NCBI GenBank assembly: GCA_038060895.1 | Contig: JBBTCT010000007.1 | Span: forward strand, 68,023-132,022 | Length of the DNA stretch: 64,000 bases | Source of the DNA: Planctomycetota bacterium | Lineage (GTDB): Bacteria; Planctomycetota; MHYJ01; WSZJ01 | Reading direction: 5' to 3' | Shown: in pieces, positions 3,950 to 31,085 of the stretch | Layout of the letters: each line of letters begins with the position of its first letter | Numbering within the stretch: the first letter of the stretch is position 1 | Notes under the pieces: generated by a model | What the model was told of the DNA's origin: nothing | Database searches by the model: none | What the model saw: the letters and a program-made list of their open reading frames with translations, nothing else | Made by a program: the position numbers and the translations under genes

Positions 3950-4719
3950 CAAGCCGGGTCCCTGTGCAGGATCTGCGTGTTGTCGTGAATGTGCACGGGC
4001 TGCTGTTTCCGGCGGAAGCGCATGTTGAGGAGCTCGACGAGGAGGGAGAAGGCCATTGCGGAGTAGATGTACCCCTTGTTGACGTGGGTCCCGAGCCCTT
4101 CGGCGACGAGCATGATGCCGATCAGGTTCAGGAAGGACAGCGCGAGGATCTTGACGCTCGGGTGCCGGTGGACGAAATCGCCGATGGTGCTGGCCGCGGC
4201 GATCATCACGCCAACCGCGACGAACATCGCGACCACCATGATCAGGATGCTTTGCGCCATGCCGACGGCGGTGATGACCGAATCGAGAGAGAAGACGAGG
4301 TCGAGGACGATGATCTGGGTGATGATCGAGCCCATCGAAGCGGTGCCGCCGCCCTTTTTCGATTCATGGTCCTCACCCTCCAGCTTCTCGTAGATCTCGT
4401 GCGTCGCTTTCGCTACGAGGAAGGCGCCGCCGAGGATCAGGATGAGCGACTTGCCTGAAATCGGGGTGGACATGACGGTGAAAAGCGTCGCTTTCAACTT
4501 CATCACCCAGGTGATGCTGAAAAGCAGCCCGAGCCGGCAAACCAGGGCGAGGGCCATGCCGATCTTGCGCCCCGCCGCGCGTTTCGCCTCGGGCAGTTTC
4601 CCGGTCAGGATGGCGATGAAGACGACGTTGTCGATCCCCAGGACGATTTCCATCAGCGTCAGGGTGAGCAGGGCGGTGAGACCCTGGCCCGTGAGGAGGA
4701 CGCTGAAATCGATGTTCAT
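3949..4719 (-). CDS. TerC family membrane protein
   Basis: MEIVLGIDNVVFI and DLVFSLDSVITAVGM motifs. Confidence 0.93.
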   Translation of the reverse strand: MNIDFSVLLTGQGLTALLTLTLMEIVLGIDNVVFIAILTGKLPEAKRAAGRKIGMALALVCRLGLLFSITWVMKLKATLFTVMSTPISGKSLILILGGAFLVAKATHEIYEKLEGEDHESKKGGGTASMGSIITQIIVLDLVFSLDSVITAVGMAQSILIMVVAMFVAVGVMIAAASTIGDFVHRHPSVKILALSFLNLIGIMLVAEGLGTHVNKGYIYSAMAFSLLVELLNMRFRRKQQPVHIHDNTQILHRDPA

Positions 4720-15767: not shown

Positions 15768-18314
15768 TTACTTCTTCCGTCCGGCCCACCAGTCGCGCCA
15801 CGCCTCCGGCGTGTCGCCTGTGAGCCCCGTCGCCTTCTTGAGCGCCCGCATGGCGGCGCCGCGCGCGGAGTCCTCGTCCAGCCACTCCACGAGCGCCTTG
15901 AGCACTTTTTCGTTTTCGCCGAACACCGAGAGGTCTTCGATCAGCAGCACCTTCAGGCTCGACGACTCTTTCTTTGCAACTTCGATCATCGCGTCCAGCG
16001 CCCCGGCTTCCTTGCGACGGCACAGCTCGCGCGACGCCGCGCGCTTGAGCGACGTGTCGCCGTTCTGCAGGAAATCGATGAGGTCCGCAGACGGCGTGTC
16101 CGCCTGGACGCGCGAGGACGCCGTCTTCGGTTTCCCGTCGTCGAGCGGCGCGAGCAGGTCGACCTCGGCCTTGTAGCTGGGCAGGTAACGGTAATAAACC
16201 TCGAGGTTCAGCACGGCCATCGCCGTCGCGTAAGCGCGGCCGCCGTATCCCGTGTCGAGCCCTTTCGTCGGCCATGAGCCCAGTTCGTGCCCCGACTTGA
16301 GCTGCATCGGGAGCACTTCGCGCTTCATCGCCCGGTTCCATGCCGTCCATTCCTCGCCGCCGTTGTAGAACATCACGAGCGTCGCGTAGTAAACGTAGTA
16401 GAAGCTGTGGTGCCACTCCGATTCCTCGCCCTTGGGAGGGTTCGCGATCGAGGGCGGCGTCTTTGCAAGAAGCGCGACCGTGCGCGATTCGAGCGTGCCT
16501 CCGCGCGGGAGGCCGAGGTAGTTGCGCGCGAGGACTCCGGAGGCCTGCACCGCCGGCGTGCCGCCGTGGCGCGTCTGGTCGAGCAGGAAGTAGGCGACCC
16601 ACGGCCGCTGCTCGTCCGTCGCCAGCGTGTAGAACGTGCGCGCGCGCGTCCAGGTCGCCGTCGGCACCGTCAGCCCTGCGGCGCGCGCGGCGCGAAGTGC
16701 CATGATCATCCAGCCCGAGATCGAAGTGTCGCCGCGCCCGGAACGCTGCGCGTCGTAATCCCAGCCGCCGTTTTCCTGCTGGGTCGAACAGATGTACCCC
16801 AGCGCCCGGTCACAGACCGGCCGCAGCCGCGGGTCCTGCGTCATCGCGAGCAGTTCGCACATCGCGTACGTCGCGATCGCGTGCGTGTAGTTGTAGACCG
16901 TCTCCGCTTCCTCGATGCGCCCATCCTTCGTCTGCCGGGACGTCAGGAACTCCGCGGCGTTTTTCACGTTGGCCGCGTAGGGGCCTTCGGGACCGTCGAG
17001 ATGCGTGTGGCCAGCGCCGAGGAAGGCGAGAAGCGCGACGGCGGTCGTGCCGACCGGGAAACGGCAGGCCATTCCGCCGCAGGGAGGTTCGATCTGGCAG
17101 ATGTCGCGTGCCCAGTCGACTCCCCAGGCTCCCGTTTTCCCCTGGTGCGCCGCGAGCCATTTCAGCCCGCGTTCCACGGCGGCTTCTGTTTCTTCGTCGC
17201 CGCCATTCTTGATCAGCGCCTCTTTCTTCGCCCGCCCTCCGCGACCGGCGAACATGCCGCCGAGGCCGTCATGCCCGCTCGTCCCGGTTCCCGGCGCATC
17301 CGGGATGTTTCCAAGCGAAATGGAGGGGACGCGCACGTCGGTGGGGATTTCCGGCAGCTTCACTCCTGCGGGCTGGGGGTCGAGCGGGTCGGGGCGACCC
17401 GCGGGCCCGCTGTCCTCGTTGTCGCGGCCCATCAGTCCCTTCTCCTGGTCTCCTCCGGGAACGACGGGGAGCTTGGTCGAGGGGGCCTGAAGCGGCGGCG
17501 CGGCAGACAGACGCAGGCGGAAGATCTCGGTTGAGCGGTGGATCGTGGAGAAGTACACGATGTTCATGAGGACAATCGCGACAACCATGTGGACGGCCGC
17601 GGCGACGAGCCACGCGGGCGCGCTCTTCGCCGCTTCTTCAGCGGACAGCACCTCACCCGGAGACTCCGGCCGGGCGCCGCGCTTGGCGAATTTCGGCCCG
17701 CGCCGCTCGCGGGTCCGGCGGGGACTCTCCGGCTCCGTCGGAACGCCGGGCCCCGAGTACATCACGGTGGCGGCGCGCGGGGTGGAGGGCGGAAGCGGAG
17801 ACGGCGCGACGTGGGGTCCCGGGGTGAGCAGTGCCGCGAGGTCTACGGATGGGCCCGCCGCCTTCAGGTCGTCGGTTTCCTCGTCGCGGTCGGGAGGCGG
17901 CGCGGCGGCAGGCGTGGGAGGAGGCGCCGCGACCCATTCGCGCATTTCCTTCCGGCGCGGAGAGTCCTTCGGCTCGTCCCGCAGGCCGCCGAGGAGGCCT
18001 TTGAGCCAGAGCCCGGTTGACTTCTGGTTCACGTCCACGTCGCGCGGCTTCGCGAGGAATTCCGTCCGCGGAACAGGGTCCTCGAGGATCGAGTCCACGA
18101 GATCGGTCAAGTCCTGCGCATCCGGAGGACGCAGCGCCGGATCTTCCTTCGGGGGGAGCAGAGGATTGGGCTCGCGCTTCACGTCGCCGGGCTTCTGCCC
18201 GGTCGCGATTTCCCACACCAGCTTGTAGACCATCTGGACCACCTGAGGGTCGTCGGGCGGCTTCCCGACTTCCTTGGCGATCTTCTCCAGGATTTCGCGC
18301 GTCAGTCTGTCCAC
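15768..18314 (-). CDS. TM-anchored prenyltransferase/squalene-oxidase-repeat protein with C-terminal HEAT repeats (paralog 3)
   Basis: WLAAHQGKTGAW, QQENGGWDY, GGRAYATA..LEVYYRYLP; longer Pro-rich N-terminus. Confidence 0.88.
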   Translation of the reverse strand: MDRLTREILEKIAKEVGKPPDDPQVVQMVYKLVWEIATGQKPGDVKREPNPLLPPKEDPALRPPDAQDLTDLVDSILEDPVPRTEFLAKPRDVDVNQKSTGLWLKGLLGGLRDEPKDSPRRKEMREWVAAPPPTPAAAPPPDRDEETDDLKAAGPSVDLAALLTPGPHVAPSPLPPSTPRAATVMYSGPGVPTEPESPRRTRERRGPKFAKRGARPESPGEVLSAEEAAKSAPAWLVAAAVHMVVAIVLMNIVYFSTIHRSTEIFRLRLSAAPPLQAPSTKLPVVPGGDQEKGLMGRDNEDSGPAGRPDPLDPQPAGVKLPEIPTDVRVPSISLGNIPDAPGTGTSGHDGLGGMFAGRGGRAKKEALIKNGGDEETEAAVERGLKWLAAHQGKTGAWGVDWARDICQIEPPCGGMACRFPVGTTAVALLAFLGAGHTHLDGPEGPYAANVKNAAEFLTSRQTKDGRIEEAETVYNYTHAIATYAMCELLAMTQDPRLRPVCDRALGYICSTQQENGGWDYDAQRSGRGDTSISGWMIMALRAARAAGLTVPTATWTRARTFYTLATDEQRPWVAYFLLDQTRHGGTPAVQASGVLARNYLGLPRGGTLESRTVALLAKTPPSIANPPKGEESEWHHSFYYVYYATLVMFYNGGEEWTAWNRAMKREVLPMQLKSGHELGSWPTKGLDTGYGGRAYATAMAVLNLEVYYRYLPSYKAEVDLLAPLDDGKPKTASSRVQADTPSADLIDFLQNGDTSLKRAASRELCRRKEAGALDAMIEVAKKESSSLKVLLIEDLSVFGENEKVLKALVEWLDEDSARGAAMRALKKATGLTGDTPEAWRDWWAGRKK

Positions 18315-18830: not shown

Positions 18831-19301
18831 CTACTTGTGGTCGTGATCGTCATGGTCGTGATCATGCTCCTCCTTCGGCAGGTCAATGTTGTACTTCTTC
18901 CCGTCGATCGTCACCGCGATCCTCCCGTCGAGGGCGTGGGCCTTCAGCGCTTCGTCCGTCGCCTCGAACCGGGACGCAAGCCCCTCCTTGTCCGGCTCGA
19001 CGGCATTCGTGACCAGTTGCCTGGCCCCATCCTTCGTGGTCAGGTTGAACTTCGGCGCATCCTTGATCGCGACGCCCTTCTCGGCCTTCGCGTCGAGAAC
19101 GTAGATCGTCGCTTTGCCTTCTTTCTCGTCGCGCACAAGTTCGAGATGCGCGACTTCCTCCCCGACCTCGAGAAGCACGCCGCCGTGGGGCGCCTTGTGC
19201 TCCTCCTCCTTCTTCTCCTCCTTCTTGTCGTCACCCGCTCGAATTCCCGAAGCGAAGCAGGCGAAGACGACGACGGCCATTCCCAGGCGAGAACTAAGCA
19301 T
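18831..19301 (-). CDS. secreted His-rich metal-binding protein
   Basis: Signal peptide, HKAPHGG..HLEL motif, C-terminal HDHDHDDHDHK; last gene of the RND operon. Confidence 0.8.
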   Translation of the reverse strand: MLSSRLGMAVVVFACFASGIRAGDDKKEEKKEEEHKAPHGGVLLEVGEEVAHLELVRDEKEGKATIYVLDAKAEKGVAIKDAPKFNLTTKDGARQLVTNAVEPDKEGLASRFEATDEALKAHALDGRIAVTIDGKKYNIDLPKEEHDHDHDDHDHK

Positions 19302-22300
19302 GACTCGGACCCTCCGAAGCGGTCGCGGGCGGGATCTCCTCCTCCGCTGACCTGGATTCTGAAAATTCCTGCCGAAGCTCTTCTACTTCCGCCCCGCCGT
19401 GCTCCTTCTGGGCAGCGAGCCGCGCGGCGGCTTTTCGCGAGAAGGCGAAGAAGAGGCCGGGACGGATGAGGAATTCGAAGATCGTGCCTGTGAAGAGGCC
19501 GCCGATGATGACGGTGGCGACCGGGTAGAGAAGTTCGCGGCCGGGCCGGTCCGCGGCGAGCGCGAGGGGGACAAGGGCAATCCCGCTGCAAAGGGCCGTC
19601 ATGAGCACGGGGACCATGCGCTCCTGGCCTGCCCGGACGATCATTTCGGGAGTGAAGCCTTCGCCTTCCTCGCGCATCAGGTGGATGTAGTGGTCGGTGA
19701 GAAGGATGGCGTTGCGCGCCGCGATGCCGCCGAGCGAGATCAGGCCGACGAGCGTCGCGACGGACATCGTCTGGCCGCTGAGCACGATGTACGCCACGGC
19801 GCCGACGAACGCCATCGGCATCGACGTCAGGACCTGGAGTGTGAGATTGAGGGAGCGAAAGTGCATCGCGAGAATCAGGATCATCGCGGCGAGCGAAATA
19901 AAGCTGAGGACCGAAATGAGCCTCGTTGCCTCGGCCTGCGCTTCGAACTGCCCGCTGATGCGGATGGAATAGCCGGGAAGCGCGGAGAGTCGTTTTCTGA
20001 GGGGCTCGAGAGCGCGATCGACGTCGGTGACGACCTCGCCGAGCGACCGGCCTCCTACGTTGTGCTGCACGACGATGCGACGCGAGGCGTTTTCGCGATT
20101 GATGTTGTTCGGGGTCTTGCCGACTTCGACGAGCGCGACGTCCCCGAGACGGATGGGTACTCCGCTTTCAGAACGGATGGCCAGGTTCCGGATCGAGGCA
20201 ATGTCCGCGCGGTCCTTTGGCTCGAGCCGGACAATGATCGGGAAACTCGTCTGGCCCTGGGTCATCCGCGAGATTTCTTCCCCTGCCAGCGCAAGCTCGA
20301 CCGTTTCTGCGACATGCTCCACGGTGAGACCGGCGCGGCCGAAGCGTTCGCGGTCGGGCTTGACCGTGATCTGGTCAACAAGGACCTGAGGTTCCACGAT
20401 GAGATCCCGCACACCGTCGATCCGCTGGATCGCATCTTTGGCTTCCGATGCCGCGCTGCGCAGGACTTCGAGATCCGGTCCGCTGATTTTGATCGCGACC
20501 TGCGCGTTCACGCCGGAGAGCAGGTGGCTGAGCAGGTGAGCGAGCGGCTGCTCGACTTCCGTTCCCACGCCGGGAAAATCGTCCGCGAGCCGGCCACGGA
20601 TGTCCTCCACGATTTCCTCGCGAGACCGCTTCGATTCGGGGTCAAACGTCACGATCGCTTCCGTGACGTTCACCCCTTCGGCATGCTCGTCCCCTTCGGC
20701 GCGCCCCGTGCGGCGGGCGACGTGGCGCACCCCGGCCACCTGCATGAGGGTGGCTTCCAGGCGCCGGCCGTACTGGTCGGACACCTTGAGGCTCGCGTCC
20801 GGCGGCAGGGTGAGGTTCACCTGGGCGGCGCCTTCGTTGAAGGCGGGCAGGAACTGGGAACCGCGCGTCATGAGAATGACGACGCCCAGCAGGACCAGCA
20901 CCGCGATCGAGCCGGCGAGCGGGCCGGGCCAGGCGATGCTGAAGCGGATCATGCGAGCGGCGCCGGCCTTGAGAACGCGGACGAGCCATCCGTCGCTGGC
21001 GTGTTTGGATACGAATTTTCCGTAGAGGAAGTAGTGGCAGAGGACCGGTGTCAGGGTGAGCGAGACGACCAGGCTGGCGAGCGTGCTGATGATGTAGGCG
21101 AGGCCGATGGGAGTGAACAGGCGGCCTTCCATGCCGCTCAGGAAGAAGAGCGGGAGGTACACGACGACGACGAGGAGGGTGCCGATGAGAATCGGGTTCC
21201 GGACTTCGCTGGAAGCCCGGAAAATCACCCACAGCGTGGCCTCGGGAGTTTTCGATTGTGAGTTCTCGCGGAGGCGGCGGAAGACGTTTTCGACGCCGAC
21301 GATCGCGTCGTCCACGAGAGCCCCGATGGCCACCGCCAGGCCTCCCAGCGTCATCGTGTTGATCGAAAGCCCGAACGCCTGGAACACGATGGCGGTCATC
21401 GCGACGGACAGCGGGATTGCCGTGAGCGTGATGAAGGTCGTGCGGAAGTTCAGCAGGAACAGAAACAGAATGACGACGACGAGAATCGCGCCGTCGCGCA
21501 CGGCTTCCTGCACGTTGTCGATGGCGCGGTGAATGAACGCAGCCTGCTGAAAGAGGTCCGGAACGAGAATCACGTCGCCGGGCATCGTCTTCTGCAGGTC
21601 CTTCAACTCGGCGACGACCAGTTCGGTCAACCTGACCGTGTCGACGGACGGCTGCTTGAAGACGACCATCACGACGCCCGGTTGGTTGTCCACACCCGCC
21701 TGCCCGGACAGAACCGCGGAAGGGCCGAAGTCCACGCGGGCCACGTCCTTGATCCGCACCGGCCGCACGGGATCGGGTCTCACGACGGCCTCCGCCAGTT
21801 CCTCGGGGTTTTCAAGCCGTCCTGAGTAAGCGACCAGCGGGCCCTTCCAGCCGACTTCCATCATGCCGCCTGCGGCGTTGACGTTGGCCGCCTTCACGGC
21901 CATCGACACCTCCTCGACCGTCACGTCGAACGTCCGCAGCTTGTCCGCCGACACGATCACCTGCATCTCCTGGGGCGCTCCGCCGCTTCCAACGACCTGC
22001 GCGACGCCGGGGACGCCGCGGAGACGCGGCTTGACGATGCGGTCGGCAATGGCCCGCAGCGCCGTGGCGTCCGTTTTTCCGGAGCGGCTCTGGACGCCGA
22101 CGATCTGCACCTGCCCCATGATGCTGGAAATGGGAGCCATCTGGGGCAGCACGCCTGGGGGAAGCAGCGACTGGGCCAGCTGCAGCTTTTCCTGCACGAT
22201 CTGCCGGTTGCGGAAAATCTCGGTTCCCCAGTCGAACTCGACGAACACCACGCCAAGCTCGCGACCCGCCGAGGATCGGACGCGCGTCACTCCGGTGGAT

Positions 22301-22524
22301 CCATTGAGCAGCTGTTCCAGCGGCCGGTTGATGAGCCGCTCCACGTCTTCCGGCGCCATGCCGTGCGCTTCGGACATGATGGTGACCGTCGGCCGATTGA
22401 GGTCCGGCAGAACGTCCACCGGCATTCTCAACGCGACCCAGCTGCCGTAAAACGCGACCATGATCGACCCGATCACGACGAGCACGCGGGCCCGGAGGCT
22501 CCAGGCGAGGATTCTGTTCAGCAT
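19294..22524 (-). CDS. heavy-metal efflux RND permease (CusA/CzcA family)
   Basis: MLNRILAWSL start; PVDVLPDL, TM4 AVAIGALVDDAIVGVEN, ERMVPVLMTAL. Confidence 0.93.
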   Translation of the reverse strand: MLNRILAWSLRARVLVVIGSIMVAFYGSWVALRMPVDVLPDLNRPTVTIMSEAHGMAPEDVERLINRPLEQLLNGSTGVTRVRSSAGRELGVVFVEFDWGTEIFRNRQIVQEKLQLAQSLLPPGVLPQMAPISSIMGQVQIVGVQSRSGKTDATALRAIADRIVKPRLRGVPGVAQVVGSGGAPQEMQVIVSADKLRTFDVTVEEVSMAVKAANVNAAGGMMEVGWKGPLVAYSGRLENPEELAEAVVRPDPVRPVRIKDVARVDFGPSAVLSGQAGVDNQPGVVMVVFKQPSVDTVRLTELVVAELKDLQKTMPGDVILVPDLFQQAAFIHRAIDNVQEAVRDGAILVVVILFLFLLNFRTTFITLTAIPLSVAMTAIVFQAFGLSINTMTLGGLAVAIGALVDDAIVGVENVFRRLRENSQSKTPEATLWVIFRASSEVRNPILIGTLLVVVVYLPLFFLSGMEGRLFTPIGLAYIISTLASLVVSLTLTPVLCHYFLYGKFVSKHASDGWLVRVLKAGAARMIRFSIAWPGPLAGSIAVLVLLGVVILMTRGSQFLPAFNEGAAQVNLTLPPDASLKVSDQYGRRLEATLMQVAGVRHVARRTGRAEGDEHAEGVNVTEAIVTFDPESKRSREEIVEDIRGRLADDFPGVGTEVEQPLAHLLSHLLSGVNAQVAIKISGPDLEVLRSAASEAKDAIQRIDGVRDLIVEPQVLVDQITVKPDRERFGRAGLTVEHVAETVELALAGEEISRMTQGQTSFPIIVRLEPKDRADIASIRNLAIRSESGVPIRLGDVALVEVGKTPNNINRENASRRIVVQHNVGGRSLGEVVTDVDRALEPLRKRLSALPGYSIRISGQFEAQAEATRLISVLSFISLAAMILILAMHFRSLNLTLQVLTSMPMAFVGAVAYIVLSGQTMSVATLVGLISLGGIAARNAILLTDHYIHLMREEGEGFTPEMIVRAGQERMVPVLMTALCSGIALVPLALAADRPGRELLYPVATVIIGGLFTGTIFEFLIRPGLFFAFSRKAAARLAAQKEHGGAEVEELRQEFSESRSAEEEIPPATASEGPSHA

Positions 22525-24185
22525 CAGTGGTTGTGCCCCGCATGCGCGCCCGCTGCTTCGCCCGCGCCGGCCCGAAGCGCCAGCCGGAGCGCGAACGCGC
22601 CGTGCTGGGCAATCTCGTCGTCGGGGAAAAGTTTCGAGGACTTTCCGTCCAGCACGGCCACCTCCTGGTCCTGCCAGACGACGACCACCTGCACGGGCTT
22701 CACCCCGTCGCCGTCCTTCAGGAACACGATCCGCTCCAGCCCGTCCTCGACGACCGCGTCGGAAGGCACGACGTACACGCCCTTCCATGTCTGCACCGGC
22801 ACTTGGAGCATGTAGCGAAGCCCGGGGCGGAGCTTCCAGGTGCGGAAGCGCGCCTTGTCCAGCTCGCGGGCGACGAGGGCTTCGTTCGGGATGCGCAGGG
22901 TCGCGACGGTGCCGCTGTCGGCCTCATCGTTTCTGGCGAAGAGGATGGACAGACCTTTCAAAGCCGGGCCGGTCCCTTCGACGAGCGGGCGGGCCTCGAG
23001 GGTTGCTCCTTCGGTGAGCGCCGCGATGAGCCGCGCCGCGTCGCCGCCGGCGGCCTCTGCGCTCAGGTGGAGAATGCGGGAGTCGTCGAGCACGGCCAGG
23101 CGTGTCCCGGCGTCGACGTGGTCCCCCGGTTTCACGAGAAGCTCCCGCACGTCGAAATCAGGAGCGCCATCGTGCGGCGCGCGCACTTCGACGACGGGCG
23201 ACAGCCCGCCTGCCTGCTGGAGAAACTGGACTTCGCGAAGCGTAGATCCTCGCTGCAGGAGGGCTGCGACGTGAAGGAAGTCGCGCCCGGCGTCGGCGTT
23301 GTCTTTGAACCAGGCGACGAGCGCGGGAGTGGCAAGACCGGTGCCCGCCAGTTCGCCGATCGTGGCGATGACGCGCGGTGCTTCGCGGAGATCCTCGGGA
23401 AGCGCGAGGCTCAGCGACTCCGCCTCGGGCGGCCAGAGGCCGTTCTGCTCCAGGGCCTTTTTCCAGAGCCGCTGGCCGAGAAAGGGCGCCGGGTGCCCGG
23501 ACTCGATGTGGGCGATCTGCTCCTCGGACAGGCCGTGCCGGTGCATTTCGGAGTGCGCGTTGGCCAGTTCCTTCTCGCCGCGCGAGATTTCGTATTTCAG
23601 GTCGATCAGGTTCTTGCGGGGAACGATCGGGTATCCGCCCTCCGTTCCCGTCTCCGCGAATTTCTGGAGCCGCTCGAGTTCCATGTTCAACAGCTCCAGG
23701 TTCCGCTTCGCCCTGCGGAGATCGCCGACGGCCTGGTGAAGCTGTTCGCCCGCAGGCTGAAAAATCTCCGCGGTGACCAGGAGTTCGGGCGGCGCGATGG
23801 GATCCCTGAGCAGCGTCGCAACGACGGCGCCCGCCGCCACCACGCTTCCGGCCGGAACGCGGATCTCGAGCACGCGCCCGGAGACAGGCGCGTTGACGGG
23901 GGTGACCGAGATTGCCGGGGCGACGACGGCGGCCGGAATCCCGATGTTCCGGCTGAAGTCCACTGGCGCCGCTTCGACGAAGGTCACGCCCAGGTTTTTG
24001 AGCGCCTGCTCCGAGATGTCGAGGTGGTCGCCGGCCTCATGGTCGTGTCCCTCGTGCTTGTCCTCCTCGTGCCCCCCGTCCTTTTCGGCGCCGGAGGAGG
24101 TCTGCCGCGCCGCGAACCAGCCGCCGGCGAGGCCCACCCCCGCGAAAACGAGCCCCATCACGATCGCCGCCACGATTTGCTTCAT
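22524..24185 (-). CDS. RND periplasmic adaptor (MFP), enlarged
   Basis: GGGAGG RBS, MKQIV start; N-terminal TM and His-rich tract; APVSGRV..GSVV..G lipoyl-like half; VVPSDAVV; 553 aa. Confidence 0.85.
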   Translation of the reverse strand: MKQIVAAIVMGLVFAGVGLAGGWFAARQTSSGAEKDGGHEEDKHEGHDHEAGDHLDISEQALKNLGVTFVEAAPVDFSRNIGIPAAVVAPAISVTPVNAPVSGRVLEIRVPAGSVVAAGAVVATLLRDPIAPPELLVTAEIFQPAGEQLHQAVGDLRRAKRNLELLNMELERLQKFAETGTEGGYPIVPRKNLIDLKYEISRGEKELANAHSEMHRHGLSEEQIAHIESGHPAPFLGQRLWKKALEQNGLWPPEAESLSLALPEDLREAPRVIATIGELAGTGLATPALVAWFKDNADAGRDFLHVAALLQRGSTLREVQFLQQAGGLSPVVEVRAPHDGAPDFDVRELLVKPGDHVDAGTRLAVLDDSRILHLSAEAAGGDAARLIAALTEGATLEARPLVEGTGPALKGLSILFARNDEADSGTVATLRIPNEALVARELDKARFRTWKLRPGLRYMLQVPVQTWKGVYVVPSDAVVEDGLERIVFLKDGDGVKPVQVVVVWQDQEVAVLDGKSSKLFPDDEIAQHGAFALRLALRAGAGEAAGAHAGHNH

Positions 24186-24186
24186 C

Positions 24187-25620
24187 TCACGCCTCCCTCG
24201 TCGCGCCGGGTGCGTCGTCCAACCGCCCCGACTCGTTGTTTTTATTTTCCTTCGCGGGCTCCGCGGGCCTGTCCGCCGGGTCCTCCCCGGGAAGTTCGTA
24301 AAGAGGCCGGCCAACCGCTTCCTCCAGGTCGGTCCACGACTCGCGTACCGCCTGCTCCGCTTCCAGCGACTCCAGCGCCGCCTCGCGATAGGACCGCTCG
24401 GCCACCAGCGCCTGCACCGCGTCGATTGCTCCCGCCTCCAGTCCCTTCTTCGCAAGATCGAGCTGGCTCCGCGCGAGCGTGAGGACCTTCCCTTTCCGCA
24501 GTTCCCAGCTCCCCATCAGGATCTCCAGGCGCGCCCGCGCCAACTCGACACGGGCCAGAGCCTCCCCGCACGCCGCTTCATACTTCGTGCGCAGCTCCTC
24601 CCGCCTCTCGAGCGCGAGCGCCACCCCCTGCTGATTCCGGTCGAAAATCGGTATGTCAATTCCCAGCGTCAGCCCGACAACGTACTTGGCTTCCCCGACC
24701 TCGCTGTCGCCCGAAAGCCCGAAGCGCAGGTCGGGATATTGCTTCGAGATCTCCAGCCGAAGCTGGGTCTCGGCTTCGTCGTAGCGGGATCGAAGCCTGG
24801 CCAGCGTGGGATGATTGGCGACCAGAAACGCCGCAAGGTCGTCCGTGGCAGGGAGCGGCGAGACCGAATCCGGAAGCGCACCTTCGGCGATGCCGCCAAG
24901 CACGACGCCGGAGACGCCGGTCAGCCGCGCGAGGTCGCCGGTCGCTTCCGCCTGCGCAAGGCGGGCGTCGAATCCGGCTCCTTCCGCCCTCGCGGCCTCC
25001 AGCTCGAGCTGGGCGACGTCAAGCGCCGTCCCAAGCCCCGCGTCCACCAGGCGCTTTCCAAGTTCGGCCCCGTCGCGCGCCAGCTTTCCCGCTTCCTCAG
25101 CCACGACCAGCCTCCGAACCGCCAGGGCCTGCCGGATGAAGGCGCGGCGCAGGGCGAGGTACGCTTCGCGGTGCCGCACCGCCAGCTCCACGCGCGCGAC
25201 CTCCGCCGCAAGCCGGTTCACGTCGTCCTGCCGTGACAGGCGCGCGCTCAATGGAATGGCGAAGCTGAGCGAGCCGTACGGCTGCACGTGGCGGGTCAGG
25301 ACCTCGGGGCCGAAACCGAATGCCGGCCCGATTTCAATGCCGGGGTTGGAGAGCGGCGTATCGACACCGGCGAGGGCCAGCGCCGTGAGGTACTCCGCCC
25401 GGGCCTCGGCCAGAGCCGGGCCGTGCTCCCGCAGAAGAAGCGCCGCCCGCGCGAACGTCAGGGTTCCCCGCGGATCCGGTCCGGGCGACTCTTCAAGCAG
25501 GCGCGCCCGCCGGACGTGTTCCATCACGTCGTCCACGCGGAGCGGCTTTTCCTCGTACGAAGTGCATCCCCAGAGCGACAGGCTGAACAGGGCAATGGGG
25601 ATGCCACAGGAACGGAGCAT
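24187..25620 (-). CDS. TolC/CzcC-family outer membrane factor
   Basis: Lipobox LWGC; KQYPDL, IDIPIFDRNQQG; position upstream of the MFP. Confidence 0.9.
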   Translation of the reverse strand: MLRSCGIPIALFSLSLWGCTSYEEKPLRVDDVMEHVRRARLLEESPGPDPRGTLTFARAALLLREHGPALAEARAEYLTALALAGVDTPLSNPGIEIGPAFGFGPEVLTRHVQPYGSLSFAIPLSARLSRQDDVNRLAAEVARVELAVRHREAYLALRRAFIRQALAVRRLVVAEEAGKLARDGAELGKRLVDAGLGTALDVAQLELEAARAEGAGFDARLAQAEATGDLARLTGVSGVVLGGIAEGALPDSVSPLPATDDLAAFLVANHPTLARLRSRYDEAETQLRLEISKQYPDLRFGLSGDSEVGEAKYVVGLTLGIDIPIFDRNQQGVALALERREELRTKYEAACGEALARVELARARLEILMGSWELRKGKVLTLARSQLDLAKKGLEAGAIDAVQALVAERSYREAALESLEAEQAVRESWTDLEEAVGRPLYELPGEDPADRPAEPAKENKNNESGRLDDAPGATREA

Positions 25621-25723
25621 GTCTCACCTCGCGAGCGGAATCGTTGGGGCCGTGGACGCTCCGCGCGCAATGCGGGCGGAGTCCGGGCGCCGCGATCAGG
25701 TCAGCGACAGGCGCGAGGCGCGG

Positions 25724-26113
25724 CTAGCAGCGCAGGACGTGGTGGCGGGAACCCGCCGCGACTACTCGAACGGCCGTTTCGACGGACCGGGCCGCTTCGG
25801 CACACGAAGCGCCGATGGAGAGAAGTTGCGCAGGAGGCGAAGCGACCGCCGCGTGGGCCTTGTGAATCCCGCTGGAAACCGGCGAGAGGATGTCGGTGCA
25901 GTCGCCGCAATCGGGCCCGGCAGCGAGGTGCGGCCCGCCGTCCTCGTCGCATCCGCCTTCTTCGTCGCAACAGGCGTCGTCGGAATCGCAGCACGCAAGC
26001 GCCTCGACCTCGTAGGCGAGGTGGCCGTTGTCCCCGATGCAGAGGATGGTGCCGCTCGTCGCAACGAGGGCGATCGTGTGGAAGAGACAGAGGAGGAGGG
26101 CGACCGTGCGCAT
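25724..26113 (-). CDS. small exported Cys-rich leader protein (LRC type, copy A)
   Basis: MRTVALLLCLFH..SG..LCIGDNGH..YE..CC..CC..PDCGDC.D..VLRC; aligns from the first Met with 31162..31563; alternative start at 26131. Confidence 0.75.
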   Translation of the reverse strand: MRTVALLLCLFHTIALVATSGTILCIGDNGHLAYEVEALACCDSDDACCDEEGGCDEDGGPHLAAGPDCGDCTDILSPVSSGIHKAHAAVASPPAQLLSIGASCAEAARSVETAVRVVAAGSRHHVLRC

Positions 26114-26127
26114 GAGGGGGCACTTTA

Positions 26128-29100
26128 TCATGGGGCGGCCGTCTCGATGCGGGGTTTTCTCTCGAGGCCACGGCTCCGAAGAGCCACGAACAGGGTGGGA
26201 AGCACGAACAGCGTGAGCACCGTGGCCGTCGCGAGCCCGCCGATGACCACGGTCGCGAGCGGCCGCTGGACTTCCGCGCCGATCCCGGTCGAGATCGCCA
26301 TGGGCACGAAGCCGAGGCAGGCCACCAGGGAGGTCATGAGCACGGGACGCAGTCGCTGTTCCGCGGCGGAGAGCACGGCCTCGCGCACGGGAGTTCCCGA
26401 ATCGATGAACTGGCGGATCGTGGAGACCATGACCATGTCGGCCAGCACGGATACGCCGGAGAGCGCGATGAAGCCGACGCCGGCGCTTACCGAGAAGGGC
26501 ATCCCGCGCAGGTGGAGCGCCAGCACGCCGCCCGCGACCGCGAACGGGACTCCGGTGAACACGCGCAGCGAGTCCGGGATGTTTCCGTACGTCGCGTAAA
26601 CGAGAAACAGGATCAGGACGAGCGCGAGCGGCACGACCCACGCGAGCGTCTTCATCGCGCGCACCAGGTTCTCGTACTGCCCGCCGAATTCCACGCGGCA
26701 GTTCGCGGCCCTGAGCTCGGCTCCGAGCTGCGCGTCGATCGCCGACCTCGCTTCCGAGACAAACCCGCCCAGGTCGCGCCCTTCGACGTTCACGCTCACC
26801 GTTGCCAGGCGCTTCCCCCATTCCCGCGTCACGACCATCGGCCCCGTCTCGCGCGTGACCCTGGCGACCTGCGAGAGGGTGAGCCGGCCGCCGCCGGGCG
26901 TGGGGAGCAGCAGCGATCTCAGCCCCTCCTCCCCCGTCGTAAGCCTCTCGGGGAGGCGGATGGCGAGCGGGAAGCGCCGCGAGCCGGCGCGGATCTCTCC
27001 GGCGTCGAGCCCGCCGGCAGCCTCGACCCAGTCAAGCACGTCGGCGGCGCGCAGGCCGTGGCGCGAAAGCTGGGCAGGGTCGAGTTTCACCTGCAGGACC
27101 GGCTGGCCCACGAGGCGTTCGGCGGACGGATTTGACGCGCCCGGAATGCCGCGCAGGACCTGCTCGACCCGCGCCGACATCGTCTTCAGCGCCTCGTAGT
27201 CGTCCCCGATCACCTTCACGCCGACATCCGTCCGGACCCCGGCGATCATCTCGTTGAAGCGCATCTCTATCGGCTGCGTGAACGAGAAGTTCATGCCGGG
27301 AAGCGGCTTGAGCGCGCGGTCGATGGCGGCGCGAAGCTCTTCCTTGGTGCGCGCTTTCTTCCACTTTTCCCGCGGGTGCAGGATGACGAAGACGTCGCTG
27401 ACCTCGATTCCCATCGGATCGGTCGCGACCTCCGGCGTCCCCGTCCGGGTCCAGACGGTCGCGATCTCGTCGCGGAATTCGTCGAGGAGAAGCCGCTCGA
27501 TTTCGGTCGAGAAGCGGGCCGACTCTTCGATCGAGACGCCGGGGAACCGCACCGTGTTGATGACGATCGATCCCTCGTCGAGCTTGGGGACGAAGATCGC
27601 GCCCAGTTTTCGCGCGAGCGGGATCGTGCCTAAAACCACGATGAGGGCGCTTCCCAGCACGAGCACGCGATGATCGACCGCGAACCGCACCGCCGGACGG
27701 TAGAGGCGCTTGAGCCCTCGGATGATCCAGGGTTCGTGATGGCCGCCGCCGCCGCGGCGCAGGAGAAGGCTCGCGAGGACGGGCATGAGCGTCAGGGAAA
27801 GGACCATCGAGCCCATGAGCGCGAAGATCACGGTCAGCGCCATCGGCCGGAACATTTTCCCTTCGACCCCGGCGAGCGCGAGGATCGGAAGGTAGACGAT
27901 CATGATGATGAGTTCGCCGAACATGGTGGGCTTGCGGACTTCGCTTGCGGCCTCCGCGACGATCTCCGTCACGGGGCGGCCGGTCGTGTCTTCCTGGAGA
28001 TGGCGCACCGAGTTCTCGACCATGATCACGCTCGAATCGACGATGAGGCCGAAGTCGATCGCCCCGAGCGACATGAGCGTGCCGGCGATGCCGAGCGCCC
28101 ACATGGCGGGGAACGCGAAGAGGAGTGACAGCGGGATGGCGGCGGCGACGATGAGCGAGGCCCGGAAGTGCCCCAGGAAGAGGAAGAGGATGGCGATGAC
28201 GAGGAGAGCGCCTTCGACGAGATTGCGTCGGACGGTGTCGAGGACGTGGTCCACCAGTTCGGTGCGGTCGTAGACGACGCGAACGCGCGCGCCGTTCAAC
28301 TCCGGGGACTTTCGGATCTCTTCCATTTTTTTGCGCAGGCGCCCCGCGACCACGTGACTGTTTTCGCCCATGAGCATGAAACCGAGGCCTAGAACTGTTT
28401 CGCCGCGCCCGTCCGCCGTGACGACGCCGCGCCGCGGCACGGTCCCGATGAGGACGTCGGCCACGTCCTTCACGCGTACGGGGCGGCCGTCGTGAGAACG
28501 CAGCGTGATGCCGCCGATTTCTTCCGGAGTCGACGTGAGCCCGATCCCGTGGACGAGCAGGATTTCGCCCGATCCCGCGGAAGCGCCGCCGCCCACGTTG
28601 AGGTTCGAGCGTTCGAGCGCTTCACGAAGGTCCTGAAGCGTCGCGCCGTGCTTGATGAGGCGCGCCGGGTCGGCGACGACCTGGAACTGCTTTTCGAATC
28701 CGCCCCACGCGTTGACTTCCGCGACTCCCGGCACCGACAGGAGTTGGGGCTTGATGACCCAGTCGTGCGTCGTGCGGGCGTCGGTGACGTCCCCGTTCGG
28801 GGCCGTGACGATGTAATGGTAGATCTCGCCGAGCCCGGTTGCGACCGGGCCCATTTCGGGGGCGTCGATACCCGGGGGAAGTTCGATCGACTGCATCCGC
28901 TCGAGGATCTGCGAACGCGCGGACCAGACGCTGGTGCCGTCCTCGAACACCAGGGTCACTTGTGACAGCCCGTACTTCGACATCGAGCGCACCAACCTCA
29001 ACCCCGGCATGCCGCTCATCACGGCCTCGACGCGCGCGCTGATCTGCTGCTCGACCTCGACAGGCCCGAGCCCGGGCGCCACGGTATTCACCTGCACCAT

Positions 29101-29235
29101 GACGTCCGTCACGTCCGGAAACGCGTCCAGCGGCAGCCGCTGGAACGCGGCCGCCCCCAGGAGCGCCAGTGAAGCGCAAAGCACCACCACCAGCGCCCGG
29201 TGGCGAAGCGAGAAGTTGATGACGGCATTCAGCAT
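26128..29235 (-). CDS. czcA: CzcA-type heavy-metal efflux RND permease
   Basis: PLDAFPDVT, GPVATGLGEIY, TM4 SLGAIDFGLIVDSSVIMVEN, RLRPVLMT, GAEVQRPLATVVIGGL. Confidence 0.93.
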   Translation of the reverse strand: MLNAVINFSLRHRALVVVLCASLALLGAAAFQRLPLDAFPDVTDVMVQVNTVAPGLGPVEVEQQISARVEAVMSGMPGLRLVRSMSKYGLSQVTLVFEDGTSVWSARSQILERMQSIELPPGIDAPEMGPVATGLGEIYHYIVTAPNGDVTDARTTHDWVIKPQLLSVPGVAEVNAWGGFEKQFQVVADPARLIKHGATLQDLREALERSNLNVGGGASAGSGEILLVHGIGLTSTPEEIGGITLRSHDGRPVRVKDVADVLIGTVPRRGVVTADGRGETVLGLGFMLMGENSHVVAGRLRKKMEEIRKSPELNGARVRVVYDRTELVDHVLDTVRRNLVEGALLVIAILFLFLGHFRASLIVAAAIPLSLLFAFPAMWALGIAGTLMSLGAIDFGLIVDSSVIMVENSVRHLQEDTTGRPVTEIVAEAASEVRKPTMFGELIIMIVYLPILALAGVEGKMFRPMALTVIFALMGSMVLSLTLMPVLASLLLRRGGGGHHEPWIIRGLKRLYRPAVRFAVDHRVLVLGSALIVVLGTIPLARKLGAIFVPKLDEGSIVINTVRFPGVSIEESARFSTEIERLLLDEFRDEIATVWTRTGTPEVATDPMGIEVSDVFVILHPREKWKKARTKEELRAAIDRALKPLPGMNFSFTQPIEMRFNEMIAGVRTDVGVKVIGDDYEALKTMSARVEQVLRGIPGASNPSAERLVGQPVLQVKLDPAQLSRHGLRAADVLDWVEAAGGLDAGEIRAGSRRFPLAIRLPERLTTGEEGLRSLLLPTPGGGRLTLSQVARVTRETGPMVVTREWGKRLATVSVNVEGRDLGGFVSEARSAIDAQLGAELRAANCRVEFGGQYENLVRAMKTLAWVVPLALVLILFLVYATYGNIPDSLRVFTGVPFAVAGGVLALHLRGMPFSVSAGVGFIALSGVSVLADMVMVSTIRQFIDSGTPVREAVLSAAEQRLRPVLMTSLVACLGFVPMAISTGIGAEVQRPLATVVIGGLATATVLTLFVLPTLFVALRSRGLERKPRIETAAP

Positions 29236-29345: not shown

Positions 29346-30635
29346 TCAGCCCGCCCCCATCTGCCCCTTCATCGCCTCCGTCTTCAGCAGGAAACTCCCC
29401 GTAGTCGCCACTTTTTCCCCCGCGACCAATCCTCCTTTCACCTCGAACCCTCCCTCGAACTCCGCGCCCGTTTCGATCTTCCGCGCCTGGAACACCCGCG
29501 CGGTCGTCTCCACGAACACCAGCAGGCAGTCCCCGTCGTTCTGCACCGCCTCGCGCGGAACCAGCAGCTTCGCCTCCGCCGACTTCACCGTGATCTCCGC
29601 CCGCCCGAACATGTGAGCGCGCAGAAGCCCGTCGGCGTTCTTCACCTCCGCATACGCCTTCACCGTGCGCGTCTCGTCGTCCACCGATCCTCCGAGGGAC
29701 ACCACTTTTCCGACGAACTTCTTCCCGGGGAACGACTCGAGCAGGAAAACCGCCCGCTGCCCCGCGACCACACGCGTCAGGTCGCTCTCCGGCAGGTCGA
29801 TCACGACCCACATCCTCTCGACGGAAGCGATTTCAAAGAGCGGGCGCTCCGGGGAGGCGGCCTCTCCCACGACCGCCGACGCCGCGACCACCGTCCCGGC
29901 AAATGGCGCCGAGACCGTGAGCGAGGCCGAGACGTCCTTGCCCTTTTCCACCTCCGAAACCTGCTCCTCGGAAAGCCCGAGCCCGCGCAGCCGAAGGGCC
30001 GCGGCCTGCACCATCAGCCGGGCTTCCTCCAGCACCGTGCGCGCTTCCAGTTCGTCCTTCCCCGCGACCAGGCGCTTCTCGAACAGCTCCCTGGTCTTCG
30101 TGTACAGCTCCTGGCGCAGTTCGCGTGCCGCCACGGCCTGCAGGTGTGCGGCCTTGGCCTGCGACAGCTCGGCCGAGTCGACGATGGCGAGCGGCGTCCC
30201 GGCCTCGACCTGCTGCCCGAGCGCCGCGGACACCGAGCGCACGACGCCGCCCAGCCGCGGCCCGACTCGCGCCCAGGCCGACGGTACGAACTCCGTCTCG
30301 GCATTGCCGCGCGCGGTTTCCGCGATGGCACGGGACTCGACGGCGGCCGTGCGGACCCCTGCACGTTCGGCGGCGCCTGGGCCAAGCTCGATTTTCACGA
30401 GGGTGTTCGGACACTCCCCCTCTTTCGGCTCTCGCATGCGGGTCACCACCGTTCCGCCCCGCGCCAGCTTCGGGTTGCAGGATTCACACTTCGACAACTC
30501 GACCTGGTGCGGCTCGCACCAGTCCGTCCCATGCGCGGGAGGCCCCTCCCAGGGCAGCCGCCCGTGACCCGCGGTCCATGCGAACGCGGAAATCAGCGCA
30601 AGGAACACCACTCCGGTCAGGATCGACGATTTCAT
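29346..30635 (-). CDS. czcB: CzcB-type RND periplasmic adaptor with N-terminal Cys/His motif
   Basis: DWCEPHQVELSKCESCNP; SAPFAGTVV, VDDETRTVK, VPREAVQ, GEKVATTGSFLLK. Confidence 0.9.
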   Translation of the reverse strand: MKSSILTGVVFLALISAFAWTAGHGRLPWEGPPAHGTDWCEPHQVELSKCESCNPKLARGGTVVTRMREPKEGECPNTLVKIELGPGAAERAGVRTAAVESRAIAETARGNAETEFVPSAWARVGPRLGGVVRSVSAALGQQVEAGTPLAIVDSAELSQAKAAHLQAVAARELRQELYTKTRELFEKRLVAGKDELEARTVLEEARLMVQAAALRLRGLGLSEEQVSEVEKGKDVSASLTVSAPFAGTVVAASAVVGEAASPERPLFEIASVERMWVVIDLPESDLTRVVAGQRAVFLLESFPGKKFVGKVVSLGGSVDDETRTVKAYAEVKNADGLLRAHMFGRAEITVKSAEAKLLVPREAVQNDGDCLLVFVETTARVFQARKIETGAEFEGGFEVKGGLVAGEKVATTGSFLLKTEAMKGQMGAG

Positions 30636-30644
30636 GGCCCCCTC

Positions 30645-31085
30645 CTATTTCCCCTGGCAGTCGTCGCAGAGTTCGGATTCGCCGTTGTCACCCTTTTCCC
30701 AGCCGCAGTCGGTGCAGTACGCGTACGACACCCACTTGTCCCCGTCCTTGACCTCGTACTTCCAGACCCCGATGTACTGCGCCTTCGCAAAGGTCCAGCC
30801 GTGGATCCGGACTTCCTTTCCGCGAAGCTTCTCATTCGTGATCACGCCGTGTCCGTGCACGTTGTCGACAAGGGTCCACATCTTTCCCTCGGCGTCCTTG
30901 AGGCCCTGGGCGTGCTTGCTGTGAAGCGTGCACTGCGCGTCGGCGCCTTCCTTGTCCAGTTCGCAACCGACGCAGACGATGGTTCCGGCGGTCTGGGTGA
31001 GTTTCTTGAAGTCGGGCTTCTTTGCTTCGTCGCCCGCGAGGACGGCGAGCGGAACGGCGAGAAGGGCAATGCAGAGGGTCTTCAC
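30645..31085 (-). CDS. secreted Cys/His-rich hypothetical protein
   Basis: AAGGAG RBS, GTG start, signal peptide; CVGC, CTLHSKH, YCTDC, CDDC. Confidence 0.8.
   Translation of the reverse strand: MKTLCIALLAVPLAVLAGDEAKKPDFKKLTQTAGTIVCVGCELDKEGADAQCTLHSKHAQGLKDAEGKMWTLVDNVHGHGVITNEKLRGKEVRIHGWTFAKAQYIGVWKYEVKDGDKWVSYAYCTDCGWEKGDNGESELCDDCQGK

Follow-up and report, generated by a model that had tools for sequence, protein, structure and literature searches.

A small Cys/His-rich protein gene and a stop-to-Shine-Dalgarno helix before a TolC-like efflux gene in Planctomycetota: possible translational coupling by RNA unfolding

The control of heavy-metal pumps of the resistance-nodulation-division (RND) type is commonly placed at transcription; a small exported protein that acts after transcription has been demonstrated for one copper oxidase operon, CutF-cutO, and only suggested for efflux systems. 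CutF from Rhodobacter capsulatus is a small Sec-exported, Cu-binding DUF2946 protein, in whose operon a stem-loop over cutO's Shine-Dalgarno sequence (SD) is melted (PMC9973294; bioRxiv 10.1101/2025.02.05.636593). A second described arrangement is translational coupling by RNA unfolding, a model reviewed for cases including rpmI-rplT at a spacing of +52 nucleotides (nt), and held to work best where the spacing admits a second ribosome while the first holds the structure open (PMC12548453). Both are compared here with a locus in a 64,000-nt stretch of DNA, hereafter the window, from a Planctomycetota bacterium (GCA_038060895.1, contig JBBTCT010000007.1, positions 68,023-132,022 of the forward strand), in which a small open reading frame (ORF), P0001, and the gene of a TolC-like outer-membrane efflux protein follow each other on the same strand with a spacer of 103 nt. 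The 489-base feature under study is best explained as two parts: a gene whose small Cys/His-rich product is exported or anchored in the membrane, and the 103 nt that separate it from the TolC-like gene, the outer-membrane-factor gene of a heavy-metal RND efflux cluster. We give a probability of roughly 0.55 to the reading that translation of the small gene opens a hairpin in this spacer and thereby lets the TolC-like gene be translated, in other words to translational coupling by RNA unfolding.

The small ORF (25724..26113, minus strand) encodes 129 amino acids followed by TAG, with the C-terminus VRVVAAGSRHHVLRC (...HHVLRC); its last codons, Leu-Arg-Cys plus stop (CTG CGC TGC TAG, 25724..25735, minus strand), form the end of a C-terminal motif of the protein family described below. 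Past a CCG, 4 nt after the stop codon, starts the 5' arm of the helix, the anti-SD CGCCTCGCG (25712..25720, minus strand), and its partner is the 3' arm CGCGAGGTG (25625..25633, minus strand), which contains the GAGG at 25630-25627; next come AGAC and, at 25620, the ATG. Read directly from the bases and paired antiparallel, the two arms form 9 base pairs (bp), eight of them Watson-Crick and one G-U, exactly as the first-pass annotation had stated. That annotation also took the GAGG, which lies 6 nt before the ATG, for the SD of the TolC-like gene; the 16S rRNA of the genome ends in ...GGATCACCTCCTTTCT / ...CACCTCCTTTCT at its 3' end, with which the GAGG is compatible, so that it is a plausible SD. 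The rest of the spacer (25621..25705, minus strand) comprises inner imperfect hairpins and the SD arm; according to the folding prediction, the hairpin spans the spacer from end to end, with the SD buried inside and the stop-to-SD helix as its base. When the RNA was folded from 12 nt before the stop to 15 nt past the start, the helix was present in the minimum-energy fold and each of its nine pairs had a probability of 0.84-0.99; over 25 contexts of different flank length, the mean probability of pairing between the SD region and the 22 nt after the stop was at least 0.5 in 16. Folding of 25600-25740 gave a minimum-energy structure without the helix and a centroid with it, and the stability of this fold was no better than chance (z +1.34, with 186 of 200 shuffles at least as stable). 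A search of 25500-25800 on both strands against Rfam 15 returned no match at E ≤ 10.

Recurrence was assessed at 31 junctions between a member of the small-protein family and the gene following it, 21 from a sample of 401 genomes and 10 from a further taxonomic family, with L055 entering the RNA test only. The energy of the duplex between the 22 nt after the stop and the 22 nt before the next start was calculated, and z was taken against 200 dinucleotide shuffles; as controls served 209 co-directional junctions of the window genome with spacers of 40-170 nt and an SD, obtained with a crude gene call based on G+C at third codon positions. The mean duplex energy was -17.5 kcal/mol in the family versus -10.25 kcal/mol in the controls, with mean z values of -1.86 and +0.06, respectively. 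A z of -2 or lower was found at 18/31 family junctions versus 5.7% of the controls, and a z of -3 or lower at 8/31 versus 1.4% (Mann-Whitney test on z, p = 2e-9). The 18 positive junctions span 10 of the 13 taxonomic families sampled, each with a different sequence. A comparison of shuffles with the lowest duplex energy found anywhere in the downstream region proved insensitive in G+C-rich DNA, and the position of the best partner was therefore used instead: searched from +30 to +260, the best partner of the post-stop 22-mer ends between -11 and +2 of the start codon in 17/31 family junctions versus 5/209 controls (Fisher's test, p about 1e-13). When partners were swapped among the first 21 loci, cognate pairs averaged -15.6 kcal/mol versus -10.3 kcal/mol for non-cognate pairs, and none of 100,000 permutations reached the observed mean. 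A 5' window slid over the 240 nt upstream and the spacer overlapped the stop codon at its best position (offset -9 to +2) in 9 of these 21 loci.

The longest helices consist of perfect pairs, 12 in L032, 11 in L055, 10 in L028, 9 each in L033 and L034; these five begin 1-3 nt after the stop and finish 3-12 nt before the next start codon. Family spacers are 46-239 nt long, and helices are present also where the protein ends in LLL, ILS, LII, LIL or LLV. The helix was not seen where a gene of another kind follows the small gene: between paralogs and the Cys-rich gene that follows them it was found in 0/4 cases (E -4.8 to -9.9, z -1.3 to +1.6), among them the junction of the paralog P0005 in the window (E -4.8, z -1.3), and in 0/2 of the tandem junctions between small genes.

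Two side observations concern the architecture of these hairpins. In one taxonomic family, tandem pairs of small genes precede the outer-membrane gene (L058/L049 on G230:C4, L063/L057 on G291:C234); the stop of the second copy alone is paired to the SD, and the spacer from first to second copy has neither a helix nor an obvious SD. In L051 and L062 a 9-bp inner hairpin sits within the closing helix, with a two-sided change in one of its pairs (C-G to U-A) and a one-sided change in another (G-C to G-U).

The analysis shows the gene order, the protein family, the helix and, in relatives, the reappearance of this helix with altered sequence; we infer one shared transcript, repression of initiation by the helix and relief by upstream translation. 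The closing helix would pair the post-stop bases with the SD of the TolC-like gene, whose ribosome-binding site would by default be closed; once a ribosome reached the end of the small ORF, it would cover and unwind the 5' arm, upon which the SD would become free and a new ribosome could load on the TolC-like gene. The 5' arm is placed beyond the end of the upstream ORF, so that it would be reachable only by a ribosome that stands on the last codons of the small ORF or on its stop codon. The start of the small ORF may itself be part of such a chain. The TGA of the upstream RND pump gene (26130-26128) shares bases with an ATG in frame with the small ORF (26131-26129), forming an ATGA overlap (26128..26131, minus strand); a start at 26131 would make the protein 135 residues long, 6 codons more than annotated (MIKCPL...). 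The same overlap is found in the homolog L006 (ATG 3983, TGA 3984-3986). Its retention suggests that the small ORF begins 6 codons earlier, with initiation possibly coupled to termination of the pump gene, and the outer-membrane factor would then be the last link in a chain that starts with the pump gene and passes through the small gene.

The first-pass annotation had proposed that a ribosome paused at the Leu-Arg-Cys end would cover the anti-SD and switch on the efflux operon. The core of this idea, in which a ribosome at the stop frees the SD, has the best support of the mechanisms considered for the family, given the helix at 18/31 junctions against 5.7% of controls and the CutF-cutO precedent (PMC9973294); for the window locus it is plausible, on weak evidence. 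A pause specific to Leu-Arg-Cys is not supported, because this triplet is the end of a protein-level motif found in 33/89 family members and helices accompany other endings as well. As for the operon, the switch could act on the TolC-like gene and later genes at most, the genes of the first pump being located upstream of the small ORF.

Several points weigh against coupling by unfolding, first of all at the window itself. The helix there is correct and yet, by itself, not significant in a genome of 66% G+C: 43/300 shuffles equalled its duplex energy of -18.6 kcal/mol (z -0.99 to -1.07), as did 14.5% in a set of 200 and 14% of the other 22-nt windows in the neighborhood. The ribosomal helicase site is located near +11 from the P site, and a ribosome at the stop codon should thus unwind only the first few post-stop bases; the window helix begins at +4. 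In a library screen, structure just past the upstream stop reduced coupling (PMC12548453). Within the survey, 13/31 junctions have z above -2, five of them above 0, and start codons were chosen by eye from a lipoprotein-type signal and an SD. Addition of L017, which is negative (z -0.57), gives 18/32; if the five loci with an ambiguous downstream start (L012, L014, L026, L027, L036) are counted as negative too, the figure falls to 18/37. L018 and L060 end at contig edges. Moreover, the loci are kin and not independent, with 14/31 junctions from a single taxonomic family, and the controls stem from one genome.

The comparison with the closest homolog (L006/L009; 84% DNA identity over 8.4 kb) is likewise unfavorable. 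Here the 5' arm is changed at 4/9 positions without compensation, the SD arm is identical, and the duplex is worse than its shuffles (z +1.9). A shifted 7-bp alternative (post-stop +11 to +17, one bulge) reaches a pair probability of about 0.67-0.9 in one context, and a mean probability of at least 0.5 in just 4 of 25 flank contexts. Conservation of the pairing in homologs, whose absence the first-pass annotation had named among its refuting results, is borne out by the recurrence across taxonomic families and fails in the nearest relative. The more distant L010 of the same genus has a perfect 8-bp helix, GUUCCUCG/CGAGGAAC, which starts 3 nt after the stop and is predicted in 25/25 contexts; relative to the window, two pairs flanking a shared CCUCG/CGAGG core differ on both sides with the pairing kept. 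RNAalifold on the three same-genus spacers gave a covariation term of +0.79, which is uninformative as the third sequence was misaligned by MAFFT. A 60-nt segment of the spacer (25690-25631) is 98% identical to L006, with 55-88% in the flanking coding sequence, so that the spacer as a whole appears to be under strong constraint; its conserved 85 nt occur only once in the genome and are not a repeat. The 20 nt directly after the stop are an exception to this conservation, with 7/20 changed.

That P0001 is a real protein gene, and that its designation as a leader is wrong, follows from its relatives: judged by sequence, a paralog, an ortholog and about 95 related clusters leave no room for the classical criterion of a short leader. 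The paralog P0005 (31162..31563, minus strand; 133 residues, ending PLPLRC) is located 5 kb upstream and shares 38% identity with P0001 (E 6e-15), and an ortholog in another Planctomycetota genome is 66% identical. A word-indexed homolog search for P0001 gave one relative only, and the family was found by full profile search. The profile of P0001, P0005 and the ortholog retrieved 95 representative clusters (50% identity, E ≤ 0.001) among 1.84 billion proteins, 93 of them 111-183 residues long and two being long proteins with multiple stretches; 88 of the 93 short relatives fall within 111-160 residues. With the same three-sequence alignment, a profile search of genome contigs gave one true and one weak locus. 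The family occurs in 29 of 401 sampled genomes of the phylum, and in 8 of 11 genomes of one further taxonomic family.

The family alignment holds 89 rows, namely 87 of the 95 clusters plus paralog and ortholog, two long matches and six clusters with long N-termini having been left out. Its core consists of a hydrophobic N-terminus, [VL]LC[IV]GxDGHxxxE, then CC, then CGxCxD and a variable Pro/Ala-rich linker, and is closed by the motif ...L-R-[TS]-V-V-L-[RL]-[CI], which invariably ends exactly at the C-terminus and hence at the stop codon. Counted back from the end, Leu occupies -3 in 80/89 members, Arg -2 in 48/89, Cys -1 in 47/89 and Ile -1 in 19/89; Thr or Ser is found at -6 in 63/89, and Pro is enriched at -12 to -17. 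The 42/89 members without a terminal Cys end in I, V or L. At least one Pro lies within the last 15 residues in 77/89 members, and a PP in 37/89. P0001 itself shows the hydrophobic N-terminus and the conserved C25, G30, H31, E35, C41-C42 and C69-x-x-C72, and its ORF contains 11 Cys codons spread along the length. A hydrophobic N-terminus is common across the family and fits a cleaved signal and a membrane anchor alike. In an AlphaFold2 model of P0001, of low confidence (predicted local distance difference test score 66.5), helix 2-20 is followed by a three-stranded sheet (23-26, 32-35, 73-76) whose predicted strands coincide with or adjoin conserved Cys, His and Glu residues.

Pfam and NCBIfam contain no family for these small proteins, and none of the Pfam models has matches to two or more of the 89 members; the sole match of the small proteins in either collection, to RCC1_2, is spurious and below threshold. 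Cluster look-ups yielded only "hypothetical protein" from Planctomycetota, and a protein atlas only unnamed clusters with weak pointers to DUF8199, DUF6769, DUF2946 and DUF6660. Neither P0001 nor P0005 matches DUF2946 (PF11162), and the one match among the 89 members is not significant (E 0.02). An hhalign comparison of the family with four same-phylum DUF2946 proteins gave a probability of 22% (E 9e-4), which would allow for remote kinship. The same-phylum DUF2946 proteins L065-L070 end in R-[AG]-P-P plus 2-5 residues, not in L-R-C; we take these ends to resemble RAPP-type arrest motifs. By eye, the junctions of L065-L070 have no clear stop-to-SD helix.

A specific version of coupling, possible although improbable on present evidence, is metal-regulated arrest of the CutF type. 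Here, the exported nascent chain would bind periplasmic metal, the bound metal would keep the C-terminal motif in the tunnel and prolong the stay of the ribosome at or near the stop, and only then would the hairpin melt, so that the outer-membrane channel would be made in response to periplasmic metal. The architecture resembles that of CutF in that the protein has fewer than 150 residues, a hydrophobic N-terminus (the predicted helix 2-20) and near-invariant Cys, His and Glu residues; the C-terminal motif, with its nearly constant Leu at -3 and the Pro-rich stretch at -12 to -17, abuts the stop; and a predicted hairpin shields the SD of the next gene. For CutF itself, metal-dependent stalling and melting of the stem-loop are experimental findings (PMC9973294; bioRxiv 10.1101/2025.02.05.636593), and outer-membrane efflux genes are the commonest neighbors of CutF-like genes (PMC9973294). 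On the other hand, P0001 is without a PP in its last 15 residues, and DUF2946 kinship amounts to the profile-profile probability of 22% with no significant match. Furthermore, the motif shows the same degree of conservation in those paralogs that have no helix at their junctions; motif and helix are therefore separable, which suggests that the motif also, or instead, serves the mature protein. In one tentative form of the idea, unlikely in our estimate, these proteins would sense metal in the periplasm as nascent chains and form a second family of this kind, independent of DUF2946. Metal bound by the exported Cys/His domain would hold L-R-[TS]-V-V-L-R-C in the tunnel while the stop codon occupies the A site; this arrest at the termination stage would melt the covarying stop-to-SD hairpin, and translation of the pump's outer-membrane channel would be limited to metal stress.

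It is rather doubtful that the hairpin has no translational role, be it a chance helix in G+C-rich DNA or a structure for mRNA stability or processing that merely includes the SD. The chance-level score of the window helix and its alteration in the nearest homolog are what one would expect in that case, and removal of the CutF stem-loop region also affected mRNA stability (PMC9973294). Against this reading stand a 3' arm that falls on the SD region at 17/31 family junctions against 5/209 controls, and a pairing that is locus-specific and absent from other junction types of the same genes. Very unlikely is the proposal that the conserved 85 nt are a DNA promoter and operator of a separate transcription unit comprising the TolC-like gene and the second pump. 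The identity of 98% between two genomes, against 55-88% in the flanking genes, and an imperfect inverted repeat within the spacer speak for it; however, a promoter and terminator scan of 25400-26300 gave none on the minus strand (0 sigma-70-like promoters, although those of this phylum may differ), inverted repeats fit an RNA hairpin equally, and the covarying helix in other families would be left unexplained. The version of the first-pass annotation, in which the last Cys codon of a leader peptide is the sensor of the cysteine pool and a ribosome stalls at Leu-Arg-Cys-stop, can hardly be right: the position of the helix beside the stop codon is all that speaks for it, the ORF is a conserved 129-residue protein gene with ten Cys codons before the terminal one, so that ribosomes short of cysteine would be held up well ahead of the end, and both the 42/89 relatives without a terminal Cys and the helices behind other C-termini contradict it.

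Translational coupling by RNA unfolding would act within an efflux gene cluster on the minus strand, whose order is paralog, Cys-rich periplasmic-type protein, membrane-fusion protein, CusA/CzcA-family pump, small gene and TolC-like gene, followed by a second membrane-fusion protein, a second pump and a His-rich protein. The TolC-like gene (24187..25620, 477 residues; Pfam OEP PF02321, E 2.6e-25) encodes a protein whose N-terminus has the look of a lipoprotein signal (...LSLWGC). When the product of the gene directly downstream of the small gene was scanned in 30 cases, 27 were OEP (PF02321), one was a membrane-fusion protein and two were cut short. Directly upstream of the small ORF is the gene of the CusA/CzcA-family heavy-metal RND pump (26128..29235, minus strand; 1035 residues), identified by TIGR00914 with 1101 bits versus a cut-off of 701 and by ACR_tran, and before it that of the membrane-fusion protein of the first pump (29346..30635, minus strand; 429 residues; HlyD_D23, E 1.1e-43). 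Downstream, the second membrane-fusion gene (22524-24455, minus strand) shows weak HlyD matches, and its start is not fixed, the listed ORF overlapping the TolC-like gene; the second RND pump gene (19294-22788, minus strand) scores 663 bits, just under the CusA/CzcA cut-off of 701, and its product carries an N-terminal extension of about 90 residues ahead of the ACR_tran domain.

At the upstream end of the cluster, a gene for a Cys-rich secreted-type protein of 146 residues (30645-31085, minus strand) displays the motifs CxGC, CTLHSKHAQ and a C-terminal CxxC, and has no Pfam or NCBIfam match. The paralog of the small gene is invariably followed by it, in the window as well as in loci L011, L037 and L038. 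Ahead of the start of the Cys-rich gene, a pyrimidine run is followed by an SD (CCTTCCAAGGAG in the window, with the similar CCCTTTCAAGGAG and CCCTTTCTGGAG in L037 and L011). At the other end, after the second pump, a secreted-type protein of 156 residues (18831-19301, minus strand) combines a Lys/Glu-rich start with the C-terminal HDHDHDDHDHK; it matches no family and is probably a periplasmic metal binder. Farther downstream of the efflux cluster lies the gene of an 848-residue protein (15768-18314, minus strand) with weak squalene-hopene-cyclase-like repeats and HEAT repeats.

The locus adds a protein family without a Pfam or NCBIfam model, encoded ahead of an outer-membrane-factor gene in many Planctomycetota. 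The helix, which keeps its pairing as the sequence changes in 10 of 13 taxonomic families, provides a set of natural variants that bear on two questions, namely how the translation of one gene may gate its neighbor over about 100 nt of spacer and whether nascent-chain metal sensing extends beyond DUF2946. For annotation, caution is advised, as such ORFs are genes and not leaders. A search of the literature, to which subscription journals and the supplements of PMC9973294 were external, yielded no account of this family, nor of a stop-to-SD hairpin ahead of an outer-membrane efflux gene; a survey of CutF-like genes examined spacer lengths, and the pairing is absent from the portion of it covered here (PMC9973294).

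Among the known systems, CutF-cutO, whose CutF-like proteins belong to DUF2946, and with it CopL, CruR and CzcI, comes close to the locus in several respects (PMC9973294): an N-terminal segment that is an export signal in CutF and may be one here, Cys/His motifs and a conserved C-terminal motif; a small gene in cis before a metal-homeostasis gene, with a spacer stem-loop that shields the SD; and RND outer-membrane efflux genes as the commonest downstream neighbors of CutF-like genes. Measured against the published rule set for CutF-like genes (PMC9973294), P0001 is shorter than 150 residues with either start (129 or 135), and is followed by a 103-nt spacer and an OEP-family gene; a PP in the last 15 residues is present in P0005 and not in P0001. 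The SD-shielding stem-loop is there as a prediction, with the local pair probabilities of 0.84-0.99 and the 18/31 junctions given above. The differences are that the P0001 family has no significant DUF2946 match (best E 0.02 among 89 members; hhalign 22%), that its motif L-R-[TS]-V-V-L-[RL]-[CI] stands at the very end in place of a proline repeat, and that the 5' arm comes after the stop codon. Metal-dependent stalling at the C-terminal motif, action only in cis and a need for export are traits of the CutF type. With neither a DUF2946 match nor a PP in P0001, the locus is therefore likened to CutF and not classed as a member.

SecM-secA, MifM-yidC2 and VemP-secDF2 share an exported chain, a C-terminal motif and a paused ribosome that opens an SD stem-loop (PMC9973294); they monitor protein export, not metals. 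CzcI of Cupriavidus metallidurans, a suggested metal-sensing regulator, is likewise encoded by a small gene before the outer-membrane factor of czcCBA (PMC9973294); in the present locus the small gene is placed between the pump and the outer-membrane-factor genes. From the described cases of unfolding coupling, E. coli rpmI-rplT (+52 nt), MS2 coat-lysis and f1 VII-IX, the locus differs by its longer spacer (103 nt, in the family 46-239 nt) and by a 5' arm outside the upstream ORF; it resembles them in that a structure within reach of the upstream ribosome would close the downstream site, and in that the spacing would let a new ribosome bind while the first keeps the structure open (PMC12548453).

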